The translations under genes and the position numbers were made by a program. Positions 3,283 to 39,101 of a DNA stretch of 64,000 bases are shown piece after piece. Numbering within the stretch: the first letter of the stretch is position 1; each line of letters starts with the position of its first letter. Origin of the DNA: Candidatus Hermodarchaeota archaeon (GTDB lineage Archaea > Asgardarchaeota > Hermodarchaeia > Hermodarchaeales > Hermodarchaeaceae); the NCBI GenBank assembly GCA_016839805.1, contig JAEOTO010000032.1, positions 32,001 through 96,000 on the forward strand, given 5' to 3'. The notes under the pieces were generated by a model. The model was not told the origin of the DNA. It worked only from the letters and a program-made list of their open reading frames with translations, and ran no database searches.

Positions 3283-4594
3283 ATGGTAGCAAATGCAGAA
3301 ACCACTGGTACCACTAAATATTGTATTCGTGGGAAAATTGAAATTGATGGAGTAGTAGAAACCCCGGATGTTGTAGGCGCCCTCTTTGGCCAAACTGAGG
3401 GCCTACACTTCATATCATTGATTTGAAGGGGCAATCGGCGAAGATTTGGACCTCAGAGAATTGCAACAATCGGGACGAATTGGTCGAATAAAAGTTGAGC
3501 TGCACTCGGAAAGTGGCAAATCAAAAGGTACTATTACCATTCCATGCAGTCTTGATCGAACGGAAACTGCAATCCTTGCAGCAGCCATTGAAACGGTGGA
3601 CCGCGTGGGTCCCTGTGCTGCTAAGATTACACTAGAAAAGGTAGAAGACGTTCGAGAAGAAAAACGTAAACGCATTATTGACCGTGCTGTAGAACTATTA
3701 CGCGACTGGGAGGGAGAAATCTCCCCAGATTCGCAGGAAATGACCGACACTGTAGTTAGCGAATCCCGTACAGCCGATATAACGAAAATTGGTAAAGATA
3801 GGCTTCCGGCAGGCCCTGATACGCAAAAATCTGATACCATCATTATTGTCGAAGGACGTGCTGACGTACTCGCACTACTTAGAGCTGGTATTAGAAATGC
3901 TGTTGCAGTTGAAGGTACCTCGATTCCAAAATCATTACGCGAAATTATTAACTCAAAAACGGTAATTGCCTTCCTTGACGGAGATCGAGGAGGCGATCTG
4001 ATTCTCAAAGAATTATCTCAAGTCTCGAATGTAGATTTTGTTGCAAGGGCACCTCATGGTAGAGAAGTAGAAGAGCTTACACATAAAGAAATTACCAAGG
4101 CGCTTCGCCATAAGGTTCCTGCTGAACAACTAACTGGGAAACCAAGGAGAAGGAAACCTACAACGACCCCGAGGACAAAACAGCAGATACGTCGGACCAA
4201 ACCACAGAAGACCAAAGAACCGCCTCGGAAGACAAAAACCACTACTACAAAAAGGACTTCACGAGCTAAAGCGATTGAAAAAGCGAAAGTAGAACCAAAG
4301 GAGTTGGGCATTCCAAAACCAGTTCTTGATTCTGCCGAGAAGATACAACAGACTATGATGGCTGTTATTTTTGATGATAATTTCAAACAACTTCAAGAAC
4401 CGCATGTTGGAGAACTAGCAAACGAGTTACAGAAGCTTGACAAAGCAAATACGCTTCTTCTAGATGGCGTGGTTACTCAGCGTCTCATTGATATTGCAGA
4501 GGAACGAGGGGTTAGGTTGATTATTGGTGTTCGTATTGGTAATATTGTCAAGAAGCCTGCAAAAATGCGAATTCATACATTTGATGAGTTATAA
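3283..4594 (+). CDS. dnaG: Archaeal DnaG (exosome-associated, primase-like), split by a 28-nt intron: exons 3283-3406 and 3435-4594, 427 aa
   Basis: GGTGA Shine-Dalgarno and ATG at 3283. [31 protein letters not shown]|[19 protein letters not shown] is restored on splicing. [14 protein letters not shown] and FLDGDRGG. Confidence 0.93.
3407..3434 (+). other. Bulge-helix-bulge intron in dnaG pre-mRNA
   Basis: Central helix GCCT(3401-04)/GGGC(3429-32), bulges AC^A and AA^T, intron stem CTTCA/TGAAG. The unspliced form has a stop codon and a frameshift. Confidence 0.88.
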
Positions 4595-23030: not shown

Positions 23031-23163
23031 GGGCCGGTGGTCTAGATCCCACTCGGCAAACGCCCATGGCTAGATTGGTATGATGCCTGCCTGGGGCGTG
23101 GTTTATCAAAAAGGTAAATCCCCTATCAGGTGATCCCGCGTTCAAATCGCGGCCGGCCCACCA
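23031..23163 (+). tRNA. tRNA-Pro(GGG) with two 28-nt BHB introns (23048-23075 in the D-loop; 23099-23126 at 39/40)
   Basis: GGGCCGG/CCGGCCC acceptor stem and CCA. Splicing both BHBs gives the anticodon arm CCTGC-CTGGGGC-GCAGG. Confidence 0.88.
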
Positions 23164-35842: not shown

Positions 35843-37438
35843 TCATAGAAGTTTTGTCATATAAGGACCATCGTAATTGTATCCATGACGTGTGTAATAT
35901 TGCCTGGCTCCAATACCACTCGTGCACACAATCCGATCACGCCCCGCGTTTCGGGTATATTCCTCTGCAGCCTCGAGGAGCAGTGTCCCAATGCCACGAT
36001 GTTGCCAAGCATTATCTTGTATTGTCCCCAGATCAACTGATAATCCATACACATGAAGCTCGCGGATTATTGCAGTGTTAAAGGATTTAATTTCCGCACG
36101 GTGGGCTGTGTCACTTGGTATTCGAAGGCGAAGATACCCCACTAATGCGTCTGAATCGGGGTTTTCATATGCAAGGAAGAATTCCGTCCCATTAGAAGCA
36201 GGATATTGATCAACCAGAAAGTCTAATGATTTGATATCGGGAACCTCGGGTGTTGGATAACCACGAGATCTTTGTTTATATCCCACCTCTCGAAAACGAA
36301 TTGTTTGTAGTTGATTACCCTTTTCTTCGGCACGTTGGAAGACCAACTGTGTCAGGTTACCTAGATTTGGTCCTGCAACTATTAGCCGTTTAGGGATGTC
36401 ACGTTGCATCCGTTGAATTCGAACCCACCGAGGAAGGGAAGGTAGTATCTCAGCAAGAAGATCGATAATCTCCTCATTAGTGTAGGGAGTGTACTCTCCT
36501 CTTCGCCAGATATCAAATAGAGTACTTCCCCGAACTACTAGGCATGGATATATTTTCAACAAGTCAGGTTGAAACTCTTCACGTTTGAACAACTCACGGA
36601 AGACCTGCTGATCTTGTGAGGGGGTACTGCCTGGTAATCCTGGCATTATATGGTAGCAAACCTTAAGACCAGCATCTTTGGCATTCCGTGTTGCCTTGAT
36701 GACGTCGGAAACAGTGTGGCCACGACAAATTTCTGTGTAGATTTCATCATAGATAGTTTGAACGCCTAATTCGACTCTAGTTGTTCCAAGATCTAACATT
36801 TTGTCAACATGGTCAGGTGTACAATAATCGGGTCGAGTTTCAATTGTTATACCGACGGGACGAATGGCACTTCTTTCTGCCGATTTTATAGCCTCAGCCA
36901 GATTTTTCGCATTCATTCCATTCATGGCATCTAAACAGCGTTTAATGAAATTCTGTTGATATTTGTTAGATGCTGCCAGAAACGTACCACCCATTATGAT
37001 AAGCTCAACTTTTTCTATACTATGTCCCATTGCTTGGAGCTGGTCCAACCGGCTCTCTACTTGAAGATACGGATCATATTGGTTTTGTCTTGCGCGAAGA
37101 GTCGCAGGTTCCTCTCCAACATAAGCTTTAGGAGCCGTGGGGATGTTAGTGGGACAGTAAATGCATTGACCTGGACATTCCATTGGCTCAGCCATTACAG
37201 CAACAACTGCCACACCTGATAAGGTGCGAGTTGGTTTCTTTCGTAAAATAGTACTGACTTTTTCTTTCTCGTCTTTGGTTGCGTAACTAAGAATTTCTAC
37301 ATCAGACGGGAACCGGGAGAGTTTATACTGACGACACAATTTTCGTTTCAGACGCTGAAGATCGTTCTTATTACTCACTTTCCCCTCTAATGCAGCTTGA
37401 AGAATTGCTTCTGCAACACGTTCCAACTCAGCGTCCAC
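35843..37438 (-). CDS. elp3: tRNA uridine(34) acetyltransferase Elp3
   Basis: CPGQCIYC, ETRPD, RIQRMQRDIP, WQHRGIG. Confidence 0.95.
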   Translation of the reverse strand: MDAELERVAEAILQAALEGKVSNKNDLQRLKRKLCRQYKLSRFPSDVEILSYATKDEKEKVSTILRKKPTRTLSGVAVVAVMAEPMECPGQCIYCPTNIPTAPKAYVGEEPATLRARQNQYDPYLQVESRLDQLQAMGHSIEKVELIIMGGTFLAASNKYQQNFIKRCLDAMNGMNAKNLAEAIKSAERSAIRPVGITIETRPDYCTPDHVDKMLDLGTTRVELGVQTIYDEIYTEICRGHTVSDVIKATRNAKDAGLKVCYHIMPGLPGSTPSQDQQVFRELFKREEFQPDLLKIYPCLVVRGSTLFDIWRRGEYTPYTNEEIIDLLAEILPSLPRWVRIQRMQRDIPKRLIVAGPNLGNLTQLVFQRAEEKGNQLQTIRFREVGYKQRSRGYPTPEVPDIKSLDFLVDQYPASNGTEFFLAYENPDSDALVGYLRLRIPSDTAHRAEIKSFNTAIIRELHVYGLSVDLGTIQDNAWQHRGIGTLLLEAAEEYTRNAGRDRIVCTSGIGARQYYTRHGYNYDGPYMTKLL

Positions 37439-37507
37439 CTACTAATTGCACCTAAATAATCGTTAACCCTAGAAGAGATCCCTAATCTCAACTAAGGAAA
37501 ACCAATC

Positions 37508-37711
37508 CTACCTTCGAGCAGCTTTGGGTTGTCCAGCAGGAGTACCTCTTAGGATACGTTTCGCATAATTTCGACGATTGCGTAGCCGAGGAATCGGAGT
37601 AACACGAACCTTGCCCTTTACTTTGGGCGTCTGACTCCGAACCTTACCAGCTTTTTTACTCGACTAAAAGGACATCTTCTAGCCCGTAAGCGAGCCGTGA
37701 GATCCGGGCAT
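37508..37711 (-). CDS. rps30e: 30S ribosomal protein S30e, split by a 30-nt intron: exons 37711-37686 and 37655-37508, 57 aa
   Basis: Spliced product MPGSHGSLT|KAGKVRSQTPKVKGK...RNRRNYAKR. Absent from the ORF track because the intron carries in-frame TAG stops. Confidence 0.92.
37656..37685 (-). other. Bulge-helix-bulge(-like) intron in rps30e pre-mRNA
   Basis: Minus strand: GCTT-AC^G-GGCTAGAAG-ATGTC-CTTTTAGTC-GAGT-AA^A, a 4-bp central helix and 9-bp intron stem. Confidence 0.88.
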
Positions 37712-37856
37712 TTTGTTTCACTGCTTCGGTGTTTGCATTGTAAGCTTTAAGGATTTCCATTTGATGTGAAGATCTGAATGGTGTTGAAGGTCTTAGTTTA
37801 GGAATCTTTTTACATCCTCTTGAACTGGTAGGCAATACCCACATAGGTGTCATTAC

Positions 37857-39101
37857 ATGGATGGATTTCTTGTATTCAGTATTACAAGTCTTTATTGTTT
37901 AGACGAGCGATTCACAATTCTAGCAGAGAAGAAGTTAGGCAAAACACCTCAGGAAGTTGGAATAAATATTGATCGGCTTCGAAAGGGTGAGAAAGATCCA
38001 GCTACTGCCGTATTTATTCAAGAGTTAAAAACAAAAGGTGTAGAGCGATTTTTTGTTGAATCACAAACTTTGGCTGATATATTTACAATGCTTTATGATG
38101 CTAAGACTATCCAATACGAAGATATTGATCTGTGGCGTAGAGCACGGCGTGAGTTCAGTGGTTCAAACCTGACTACAGAGAAGCTAAATACTCTGCACCA
38201 GGTTGCGATCGAACTAGCACGCCAAGCCATTCGTGAAGCATCAGAGCAAGGTGATCAGTTAGTTATCCAAGCGATGAGTTCCCTTGATGATGTTGAGAAA
38301 GTACAAAACTTGATGGTGTCGAGATTAAGAGAATGGTATGGTTTACATTTTCCAGAAGCAGCTCATGCCATTGAAGATGCTCAAATTCTAGCGAAAATTG
38401 TGACAGAAGGAGGACGACGCGACAACATAGAAAAAAACCCTGAAATATTTCAACTACTTTCCGAAACGCCCGTAAACCCTGATTTGTTAGGTAAATCAAT
38501 GGGTGCTGATATTCCTCAACATGATATGGAAATGATTCAAGCCTTATCGCGCCAACTCCTCGATCTTCAAAAACTCAGAAAACAATTGGAAACATATCTT
38601 GATGAGATGTTACAGGGAATCGCTCCCAATCTCCGAGGATTGATTGGACCAGTGATAGGAGCGAGATTCATCACTTTAGCAGGAGGGCTCGAAAAGTTAG
38701 CACGACTTCCTGCAAGTACTATTCAGGTTTTAGGTGCAGAACAGGCACTATTTCGGGCAATAAAAACTGGAGCTCGACCCCCTAAACATGGCATCATTTT
38801 CCAGCATACATTAGTACACTCAGCACCCTGGTGGCAGCGAGGAAAAATCGCGAGGATTTTGGCAGGGAAAATTGCCATTGCCGCTCGTGTCGATTTATAT
38901 TCAGGAGAGTATGTTGCCGATGAATTAAAGCAAACTGTACTCCAACGCATAGCTGAAGTAAAAAGGAAATATCCCATAGCACCCAAAAGACCGCCCTCAG
39001 TAAAACCAATTAAAAGCCCGCCACGTCGGAAAAAATCCCATAAGAGAGCTAAATCACCTTCACATAAGAAATCTCGATCAAAAATGAAGAGGCGGAAATA
39101 A
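37857..39101 (+). CDS. nop5: Box C/D sRNP protein Nop5 (Nop56/58)
   Basis: RLREWYGLHFPE, PASTIQVLGAE, PPKHGIIF, basic tail. Confidence 0.95.
   Translation: MDGFLVFSITSLYCLDERFTILAEKKLGKTPQEVGINIDRLRKGEKDPATAVFIQELKTKGVERFFVESQTLADIFTMLYDAKTIQYEDIDLWRRARREFSGSNLTTEKLNTLHQVAIELARQAIREASEQGDQLVIQAMSSLDDVEKVQNLMVSRLREWYGLHFPEAAHAIEDAQILAKIVTEGGRRDNIEKNPEIFQLLSETPVNPDLLGKSMGADIPQHDMEMIQALSRQLLDLQKLRKQLETYLDEMLQGIAPNLRGLIGPVIGARFITLAGGLEKLARLPASTIQVLGAEQALFRAIKTGARPPKHGIIFQHTLVHSAPWWQRGKIARILAGKIAIAARVDLYSGEYVADELKQTVLQRIAEVKRKYPIAPKRPPSVKPIKSPPRRKKSHKRAKSPSHKKSRSKMKRRK

Follow-up and report, generated by a model that had tools for sequence, protein, structure and literature searches.

How can ribosomal protein eS30 be made from a gene whose reading frame is closed by two stop codons nine codons past its start? 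Such a gene, rps30e, lies on the minus strand of the window, i.e., the whole 64,000-nt stretch of a Candidatus Hermodarchaeota genome analyzed here. We consider it probable, at roughly 0.86, that the nucleotides at 37656-37685 constitute a bulge-helix-bulge (BHB, tRNA-type) intron within the rps30e coding sequence.

The rps30e locus and its reading frame

Translation of the minus strand from the ATG at 37711 gives MPGSHGSLTG, a stop, KMSF, a second stop, and then SSKKAGKVRSQTPK..., closing at the stop codon TAG at 37510-37508. Both internal stops are in-frame TAG codons and both fall within an insert of 30 nt. This translation bears out how the locus had been described from its letters, namely as MPGSHGSLT followed by an insert with two TAG codons and then by KAGKVRSQTPK. 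The parts of the gene are as follows:

37686..37711, minus strand: rps30e exon 1, the ATG plus 8 2/3 codons (MPGSHGSL, then the first two bases of a Thr codon)
37656..37685, minus strand: putative BHB-type intron of rps30e, 30 nt with two in-frame TAG codons
37508..37655, minus strand: rps30e exon 2, the last base of the Thr codon, then KAGKVRSQTPK...KAARR and the stop codon TAG (37510-37508)

The list of open reading frames contains no S30e-sized entry at this locus. Exon 2 alone matches the S30e family model PF04758 at positions 8-52 with 25.7 bits, just below the cut-off of 27. The gene is thus missed by ORF callers, as had been claimed, and falls below the Pfam cut-off as well. When the 30 nt are taken out, the predicted mRNA junction is UCGCUUAC joined to AAAAGCUGG, and the predicted spliced product is a protein of 57 residues that contains HGSLTKAGKVR and is identical at 55 of 57 positions to annotated Hermodarchaeota S30e proteins (PF04758). 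No protein identical to this product was present among 5.8 billion proteins, the closest again matching at 55/57; this result is uninformative on splicing.

S30e was present in 356 of 400 genomes of the phylum. The gene order Elp3 - rps30e - Nop56/58 (window 35843-39101) is conserved in all congeners examined; the neighboring genes encode an Elp3 of 531 aa, on the minus strand, and a Nop56/58 of 414 aa with a C-terminal tail rich in Lys and Ser. The sequence-only reading had named an intact rps30e elsewhere in the genome as evidence that would count against it. The Pfam model found no second S30e gene in the 2.31-Mb genome (next match 13.4 bits, E 0.2), although at 86.7% completeness this leaves some room for a second intact copy.

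The insert compared with relatives

The search of relatives covered 40 genomes, with the source genome of the window designated G000; the class holds 19 genomes only, and the class-level search was therefore the same as the family-level search. In 13 of the 14 other species of the genus, the protein contains uninterrupted MPGSHGSLTKAGKVRSQTPK. The exception is G013, which gave a truncated match like that of the source genome. The extracted DNA agrees with this pattern: the 13 congeners read continuously across the insert site (MPGSHGSLTKAGKVR), whereas rps30e of both the source genome and G013 carries exactly 30 extra nt in the same place. Of all possible deletions of 30 nt, just two restore LTKAG, one being the removal of 37656-37685.

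G013 represents the sister species of the source organism, since the flanking Elp3 genes share 91% nt identity, compared with ≤75% for every other congener. Its intron is the only other copy known and is identical at 28 of 30 positions. One of the differences changes a loop base and the other converts a stem G.U pair to G-C; both are structure-neutral. As only two sequences contain this intron, covariation here amounts to a single one-sided change. It had been suggested that relatives would contain the same insert with covarying stems; the insert is indeed extra relative to the 13 congeners and kept in the sister species, but the stem change is one-sided only (G.U to G-C). Exon 1 shows no difference between the two species, with the congeners reading uninterrupted MPGSHGSLTKAG. 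Over both exons there are 8 synonymous and 2 non-synonymous changes, indicating that purifying selection acts on rps30e in each of the two species. Of the 120 nt that precede the gene, 115 are identical.

We also scanned metagenome contigs and species-representative genomes with exon 2, which yielded 160 loci. The motif ...HGS(L/I/V)(T/S/A)KAGKV... was uninterrupted in 156 of them. None of the 160 loci contained the intron of the source genome, and one contained a different intron. Within the source genome, blastn-short of the 30 nt found no second copy (longest chance match 14 nt), and we rejected a mobile or repeated intron on these grounds.

Predicted RNA structure and cut sites

Folded to minimum energy, the first 76 nt (-29.9 kcal/mol, z -3.3) form a 9-bp hairpin, GGCUAGAAG/CUUUUAGUC, and two exon-exon helices. 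The central helix GCUU/GAGU and the bulges ACG and AAA occur in another conformer, which at -26.4 kcal/mol is less stable by 3.5 kcal/mol; the minimum-energy fold pairs UUAC/GUAA in place of this helix. The predicted elements are:

37662..37684, minus strand: hairpin h' of the intron, a stem of 9 bp (GGCUAGAAG/CUUUUAGUC) closed by a 5-nt loop and part of the minimum-energy fold in the source genome and in G013
37688..37691, minus strand: central helix H, 5' strand GCUU (exon), pairing with GAGU as G.U, C-G, U-A, U.G
37658..37661, minus strand: central helix H, 3' strand GAGU (intron), partner of GCUU
37685..37687, minus strand: 5' bulge ACG, predicted cut after C, between 37686 and 37685
37655..37657, minus strand: 3' bulge AAA, predicted cut after the second A, between 37656 and 37655
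37693..37697, minus strand: exon-exon helix, 5' strand CGGCU, 5 bp with AGCUG in the minimum-energy fold
37648..37652, minus strand: exon-exon helix, 3' strand AGCUG, in the minimum-energy fold
37700..37707, minus strand: second exon-exon helix, 5' strand CCGGAUCU (codons 2-4), 8 bp with AGGUUCGG in the minimum-energy fold
37637..37644, minus strand: second exon-exon helix, 3' strand AGGUUCGG, in the minimum-energy fold

In the BHB conformer, the hairpin and the central helix are separated at the 5' site by a textbook bulge of 3 nt. Beyond the 3' bulge AAA lie two more unpaired A opposite one unpaired C, i.e., a 1 x 2-nt mismatch; this puts the exon helix out of line with the central helix and makes the 3' site a relaxed internal loop. 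The weak point of the central helix is that two of its four pairs are G.U. The conformer thus has the defining features of a BHB motif, namely a 4-bp helix and two 3-nt bulges on opposite strands, with predicted cuts that equal the homology-defined boundaries. It departs from the strict hBHBh' form in that h' abuts the 5' bulge and the exon helix is out of register. As modeled, the intron is a member of the relaxed (HBh'-like) subclass of BHB introns and not a strict one.

These folds largely uphold the structure proposed in the sequence-only reading: the GCTT/GAGT central helix, the ACG and AAA bulges and the 9-bp stem are all as described, in the conformer 3.5 kcal/mol above the minimum. The statement that no outer exon helix is evident was incorrect, since the minimum-energy fold contains both CGGCU/AGCUG (5 bp) and CCGGAUCU/AGGUUCGG (8 bp), in an offset position. 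The CGGCU/AGCUG helix also persists in the fold of the spliced mRNA. Cutting after the second base of each bulge joins ...CUUAC to AAAAGCU..., which encodes LTKA; the BHB cut rule therefore restores exactly the LTKA and HGSLTKAGKVR that had been expected from standard cleavage.

We estimated how often such an arrangement arises by chance by counting, for a fixed position and a length of 30, the combination of 4 paired bases with a 3-nt gap and, abutting both sides, a hairpin of 9 bp or more. Across 4.6 million positions, the organism's own genome contains 22 such cases (4.8e-6 per position), and the match to the homology-defined boundaries is accordingly far beyond chance. With two acceptable registers, the probability of a chance coincidence with the homology-defined ends is ~1e-5. 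A looser BHB motif (hairpin of at least 7 bp) gave 3070 hits in the genome, the same as the reversed-sequence control, and we therefore rejected a genome-wide excess of BHB motifs. Given that the loose motif is as frequent as in the control, the fold alone is uninformative and only its coincidence with the homology boundaries counts.

Splicing enzymes and other predicted introns of the genome

The genome encodes two EndA-domain proteins, of 186 and 198 residues (L048:1474-2034, minus, and L049:1204-1800, plus), together with RtcB (E 1e-171). The 186-residue protein most resembles the catalytic subunit, alpha, of the heterotetrameric enzyme from Aeropyrum pernix (3p1z_B, E 1.7e-45), whose catalytic triad is matched in the alignment by Tyr, His and Lys. 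A further Lys lines up with Lys44 in the specificity loop peculiar to Crenarchaea, a residue needed for broad EndA substrate specificity (PMC3488258). The 198-residue paralogue is more distant and without the catalytic His, as expected of a structural subunit, which on sequence grounds it is predicted to be. These features support an encoded EndA of the broad-specificity (alpha-beta)2 type, predicted to be able to cut relaxed motifs. The earlier proposal that the intron would need a relaxed-specificity EndA thus finds a candidate in this pair of paralogues, the catalytic one of which carries the Lys aligned to Lys44.

Introns are also frequent in the tRNA genes of this genome, where ARAGORN placed them in 18 of 34 tRNAs, many with lengths of 26-33 nt. 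One case falls within the window: tRNA-Pro(GGG) at 23031-23163 on the plus strand was matched by ARAGORN only after the excision of two 28-nt inserts, and no tRNA was called by ARAGORN in the unspliced 23031-23163. A second protein-coding gene of the window, dnaG, contains a similar insert, and its removal under the rule used for rps30e puts the frame right, restoring FGQTEGLLGEDLDL.

23048-23075 and 23099-23126, plus strand: inserts of tRNA-Pro(GGG), 28 nt each, at non-canonical positions (D-loop and 39/40)
3407-3434, plus strand: BHB-type insert of dnaG, 28 nt, helix GCCU/GGGC, bulges ACA and AAU, stem CUUCA/UGAAG

Outside the window, at L051:482-559 (= G000:C22:264781-264858), an ARAGORN call of "tRNA-Pyl" with the anticodon CUA adjoins an intron-bearing tRNA-Leu call, and Rfam sees a T-arm only. 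The call probably stems from a tRNA with an intron that was read in mis-assembled form.

Our model for rps30e is as follows. In the pre-mRNA, the exon sequence GCUU would pair with the intron sequence GAGU, forming a 4-bp central helix between the ACG bulge with its 9-bp hairpin and the A-rich 3' bulge or internal loop, and the two exon-exon helices would clamp the whole BHB structure. Heterotetrameric (alpha-beta)2 EndA would cut after the second base of each bulge and RtcB would join the exons to ...CUU ACA AAA GCU..., encoding HGSLTKAGKVR; the 30-nt intron would be released, probably as a circle. The unspliced mRNA yields a 10-residue peptide only, such that eS30 synthesis would depend on the tRNA-splicing machinery. 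Because the only eS30 gene found in the genome is broken by an EndA-type insert, its mRNA almost certainly must be cut and rejoined. The comparative and structural evidence and the enzyme repertoire make an intron at 37656-37685 well supported, and from them we infer the splicing itself, i.e., cleavage, ligation and a spliced transcript.

Unrelated putative introns in rps30e of other lineages

We screened 400 genomes of the phylum for inserts in rps30e, with follow-up of weak matches, in addition to the 160 metagenome and species-representative loci. From this screen came three more families of inserts, which are unrelated in sequence but all fall inside CDS nt 22-37. Their inserts are 30-32 nt long, and in all three the standard cut rule restores HGSLTKAGKV.

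L225:1563-1662 (minus), L227:1441-1540 (plus) and L228:1566-1665 (minus): rps30e insert of genus g69, in 3 of 3 species, 30 nt after CDS nt 28
L039:1581-1690 (minus), L040:1440-1549 (plus), L041:1440-1549 (plus), L042:1045-1154 (plus) and L043:1587-1696 (minus): rps30e insert of genus g10, in 5 species, 31 nt after CDS nt 37
L131:545-640 (plus), metagenome contig Ga0187805_10023204: rps30e insert of 32 nt after the first base of a Leu codon, helix GAAG/CUUC

The g69 intron lies two bases downstream of the site in the source genome. In contrast to the latter, which is relaxed at its 3' site, the g69 intron has the strict hBHBh' form. Its helices are AGCC/GGCU and UGAC/GUCA and its bulges AAG (or AAU) and AUA; the hairpin is 10 bp long. 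Pairing reaches 94%, and two stem pairs show compensatory change across the 3 species. The g10 intron has the helix CUGG/CUAG and the 5' bulge AAA; its hairpins differ throughout. Pairing is 94%, compared with 19-46% in slid controls, with 7 pairs changed on both sides, a value reached in 0 of 500 shuffles, and the motif is the minimum-energy fold itself in 4 of the 5 species. As the g10 insert is 31 nt long, it shifts the frame and makes read-through impossible. The interrupted gene on Ga0187805_10023204 has a TACK-like N-terminus, MPTHGS.

The introns of these three families resemble that of the source genome in having a 9-10-bp hairpin, mostly with a 5-nt loop, and in following the same cut rule. 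They differ from it in their unrelated sequence, in their insertion points and in their lineages. Together, the four unrelated rps30e introns sit at CDS nt 22, 26, 28 and 37 in four lineages, within 16 nt of one another. These further families show that the intron reading applied to the source genome works repeatedly and independently. A pre-existing exon hairpin was not supported as the origin of this hot spot, since CDS nt 25-29 lie in a predicted hairpin loop in only 12-17% of 175 intronless genes, no more than several other positions do.

Some further observations concern the same genes. The long-range exon-exon helix GGAGUCUG/CAGACUCC of g10 has a compensatory C-G to U-A change in one species; in another, the helix takes a different register with a switch of Ser codon family. 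Genome G225 contains two S30e-like genes (L038 and L042), one uninterrupted and divergent (...AGKVRQQTPILEST...) and the other intron-bearing and of the usual type. A congener of the source organism has, besides an intact rps30e, a weak second S30e-like match at L036 (G007:C20:11454-11567) with 19 bits and two in-frame TGA codons, which may be a decayed duplicate.

Alternative explanations

If rps30e were a pseudogene, or eS30 dispensable, the insert would be a neutral inactivating insertion. Two in-frame stops nine codons after the start are what such a gene might show, and the genome is incomplete, but we regard this as very unlikely. The insert has been kept across ~9% nt divergence with exons that are intact, in frame and changed mainly at synonymous sites (8 versus 2), the upstream region is nearly invariant in the two species (115/120), and this is the sole S30e locus found in the genome and stands in conserved synteny. 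Moreover, the ends of the insert coincide with BHB cut sites (p ~1e-5), and the same pattern occurs in three other lineages, including the frame-shifting 31-nt insert whose stem changes are compensatory in 5 species. An artefact of assembly or binning is conceivable insofar as both genomes are metagenome-assembled drafts (50 and ~470 contigs). However, the insert recurs in identical position in two independently assembled species, between which it differs by two point changes, and the flanks are collinear with those of all congeners, leaving this explanation a negligible share.

Two other explanations would leave the 30 nt in the mRNA and place the correction in translation. The TAG codons could be decoded, through pyrrolysine or suppressor read-through, to give eS30 with a 10-residue insertion, or re-initiation could give eS30 without its N-terminus. 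Both in-frame stops are TAG, the length of the insert is a multiple of three, and elsewhere on the contig ARAGORN reports a tRNA whose anticodon is CUA. Yet neither PylS (best 32 bits, cut-off 178) nor PylD (16, cut-off 150) was found, the CUA "tRNA" is not recognized by Rfam as a tRNA at E ≤0.1, and TAG is a common stop in this genome, ending 236 of 845 long ORFs (28%) as well as rps30e itself; on these grounds pyrrolysine or amber decoding was rejected. The insert would, in addition, fall inside the most conserved motif of the S30e family, and both differences between the two species would be non-synonymous (M to I, S to P) although they are neutral for RNA structure. Re-initiation would find no ATG, GTG or TTG between the second TAG and KAGK, while the analogous 31- and 32-nt inserts of other lineages shift the frame and so speak against read-through. 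We judge decoding or re-initiation to be highly improbable. Ribosomes might instead hop over the 30 nt, as in phage T4 gene 60, and a stable hairpin directly after the take-off region and a stop codon at the start of the gap would be in keeping with this. There are, however, no matching take-off and landing codons: ACG or GGC precedes the gap, and its end offers just AAA or AGU. Both boundaries also match EndA geometry precisely, and the same is true of four independent insert families and of dnaG and the tRNA genes of the window. Translational bypassing is not known in archaea, and we hold hopping to be extremely improbable. A BHB-type intron removed from the rps30e mRNA remains the preferred reading.

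Comparison with known introns and splicing systems

Full-text literature searches for coding-sequence BHB introns returned only those in cbf5 of Crenarchaeota, and such searches found no paper linking S30e and introns. The cbf5 intron reportedly occurs in the Desulfurococcales and Sulfolobales (Watanabe, 2002; Yoshinari, 2006; Yokobori, 2009). Like it, the rps30e intron is a short BHB-type intron inside a coding sequence with a patchy phyletic pattern that indicates gain and loss. Furthermore, the cbf5 intron often has a relaxed cleavage motif, as in the source genome, and its hosts have hetero-oligomeric EndA. The two differ in host gene and phylum, cbf5 encoding a pseudouridine synthase of Crenarchaeota and rps30e encoding eS30 in an Asgard archaeon, where the intron lies in codon 9 near the start. 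They also differ in that cbf5 splicing is experimentally confirmed, whereas the rps30e intron is known here from sequence; BHB pre-mRNA splicing in archaea has been confirmed for cbf5 only, with other cases predicted and unconfirmed (Yokobori, 2009; PMC2738675).

The rps30e intron shares with archaeal tRNA introns the 4-bp helix, the 3-nt bulges, the cut after the second bulge base and the size class of 26-33 nt. The enzymes are presumably the same for both, but the substrate differs, being an mRNA. Archaeal tRNA introns are reported to occur at non-canonical positions with strict or relaxed BHB motifs (Marck and Grosjean, 2003). In Asgard archaea, tRNA genes are heavily interrupted and an (alpha-beta)2 EndA occurs in most genomes (bioRxiv 10.64898/2026.10.13.758758); this preprint covers tRNA genes only and leaves mRNA and S30 unmentioned.

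A parallel outside the archaea is found in a further mode of mRNA splicing that is non-spliceosomal and, like that proposed here, consists of a protein-catalyzed excision of a short intron at mRNA stem-loops on which a functional protein depends. This is the splicing of HAC1/XBP1 mRNA, in which cleavage by Ire1 is followed by joining through tRNA ligase or RtcB (RtcB in metazoa). It differs in its nuclease, Ire1 rather than EndA, in its recognition motif and in being stress-regulated.

Meaning of the proposed rps30e intron

The rps30e intron is a new host gene and a new phylum for the rare BHB introns of archaeal protein-coding genes. We lean, by a little, towards the view that it is one instance of a wider phenomenon, in which protein-coding genes of Asgard and some TACK archaea have acquired BHB mini-introns of 28-32 nt again and again, with the first 40 nt of rps30e as a recurrent target. 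If so, these archaea would have a genuine pre-mRNA splicing pathway that runs on the tRNA-splicing machinery, and the synthesis of eS30 and DnaG would be coupled to EndA/RtcB activity. The clustering of the introns would then point either to a site-specific insertion route or to selection for splicing-dependent control of eS30.

There is also a consequence for annotation. Since gene callers and the Pfam cut-off both miss rps30e here, an apparent absence of eS30, or of another gene, in Asgard or TACK genomes can be an artefact, and comparisons of completeness and gene content inherit the error from unrecognized mini-introns.

The weight of the eS30 case is raised by the independent acquisition of introns in several lineages. 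If the mRNA of this essential ribosomal protein does have to be spliced, transcription would be separated from productive translation for intron-bearing genes, and protein-catalyzed mRNA splicing would have a working role in how genes are expressed in the prokaryotes most closely related to eukaryotes.
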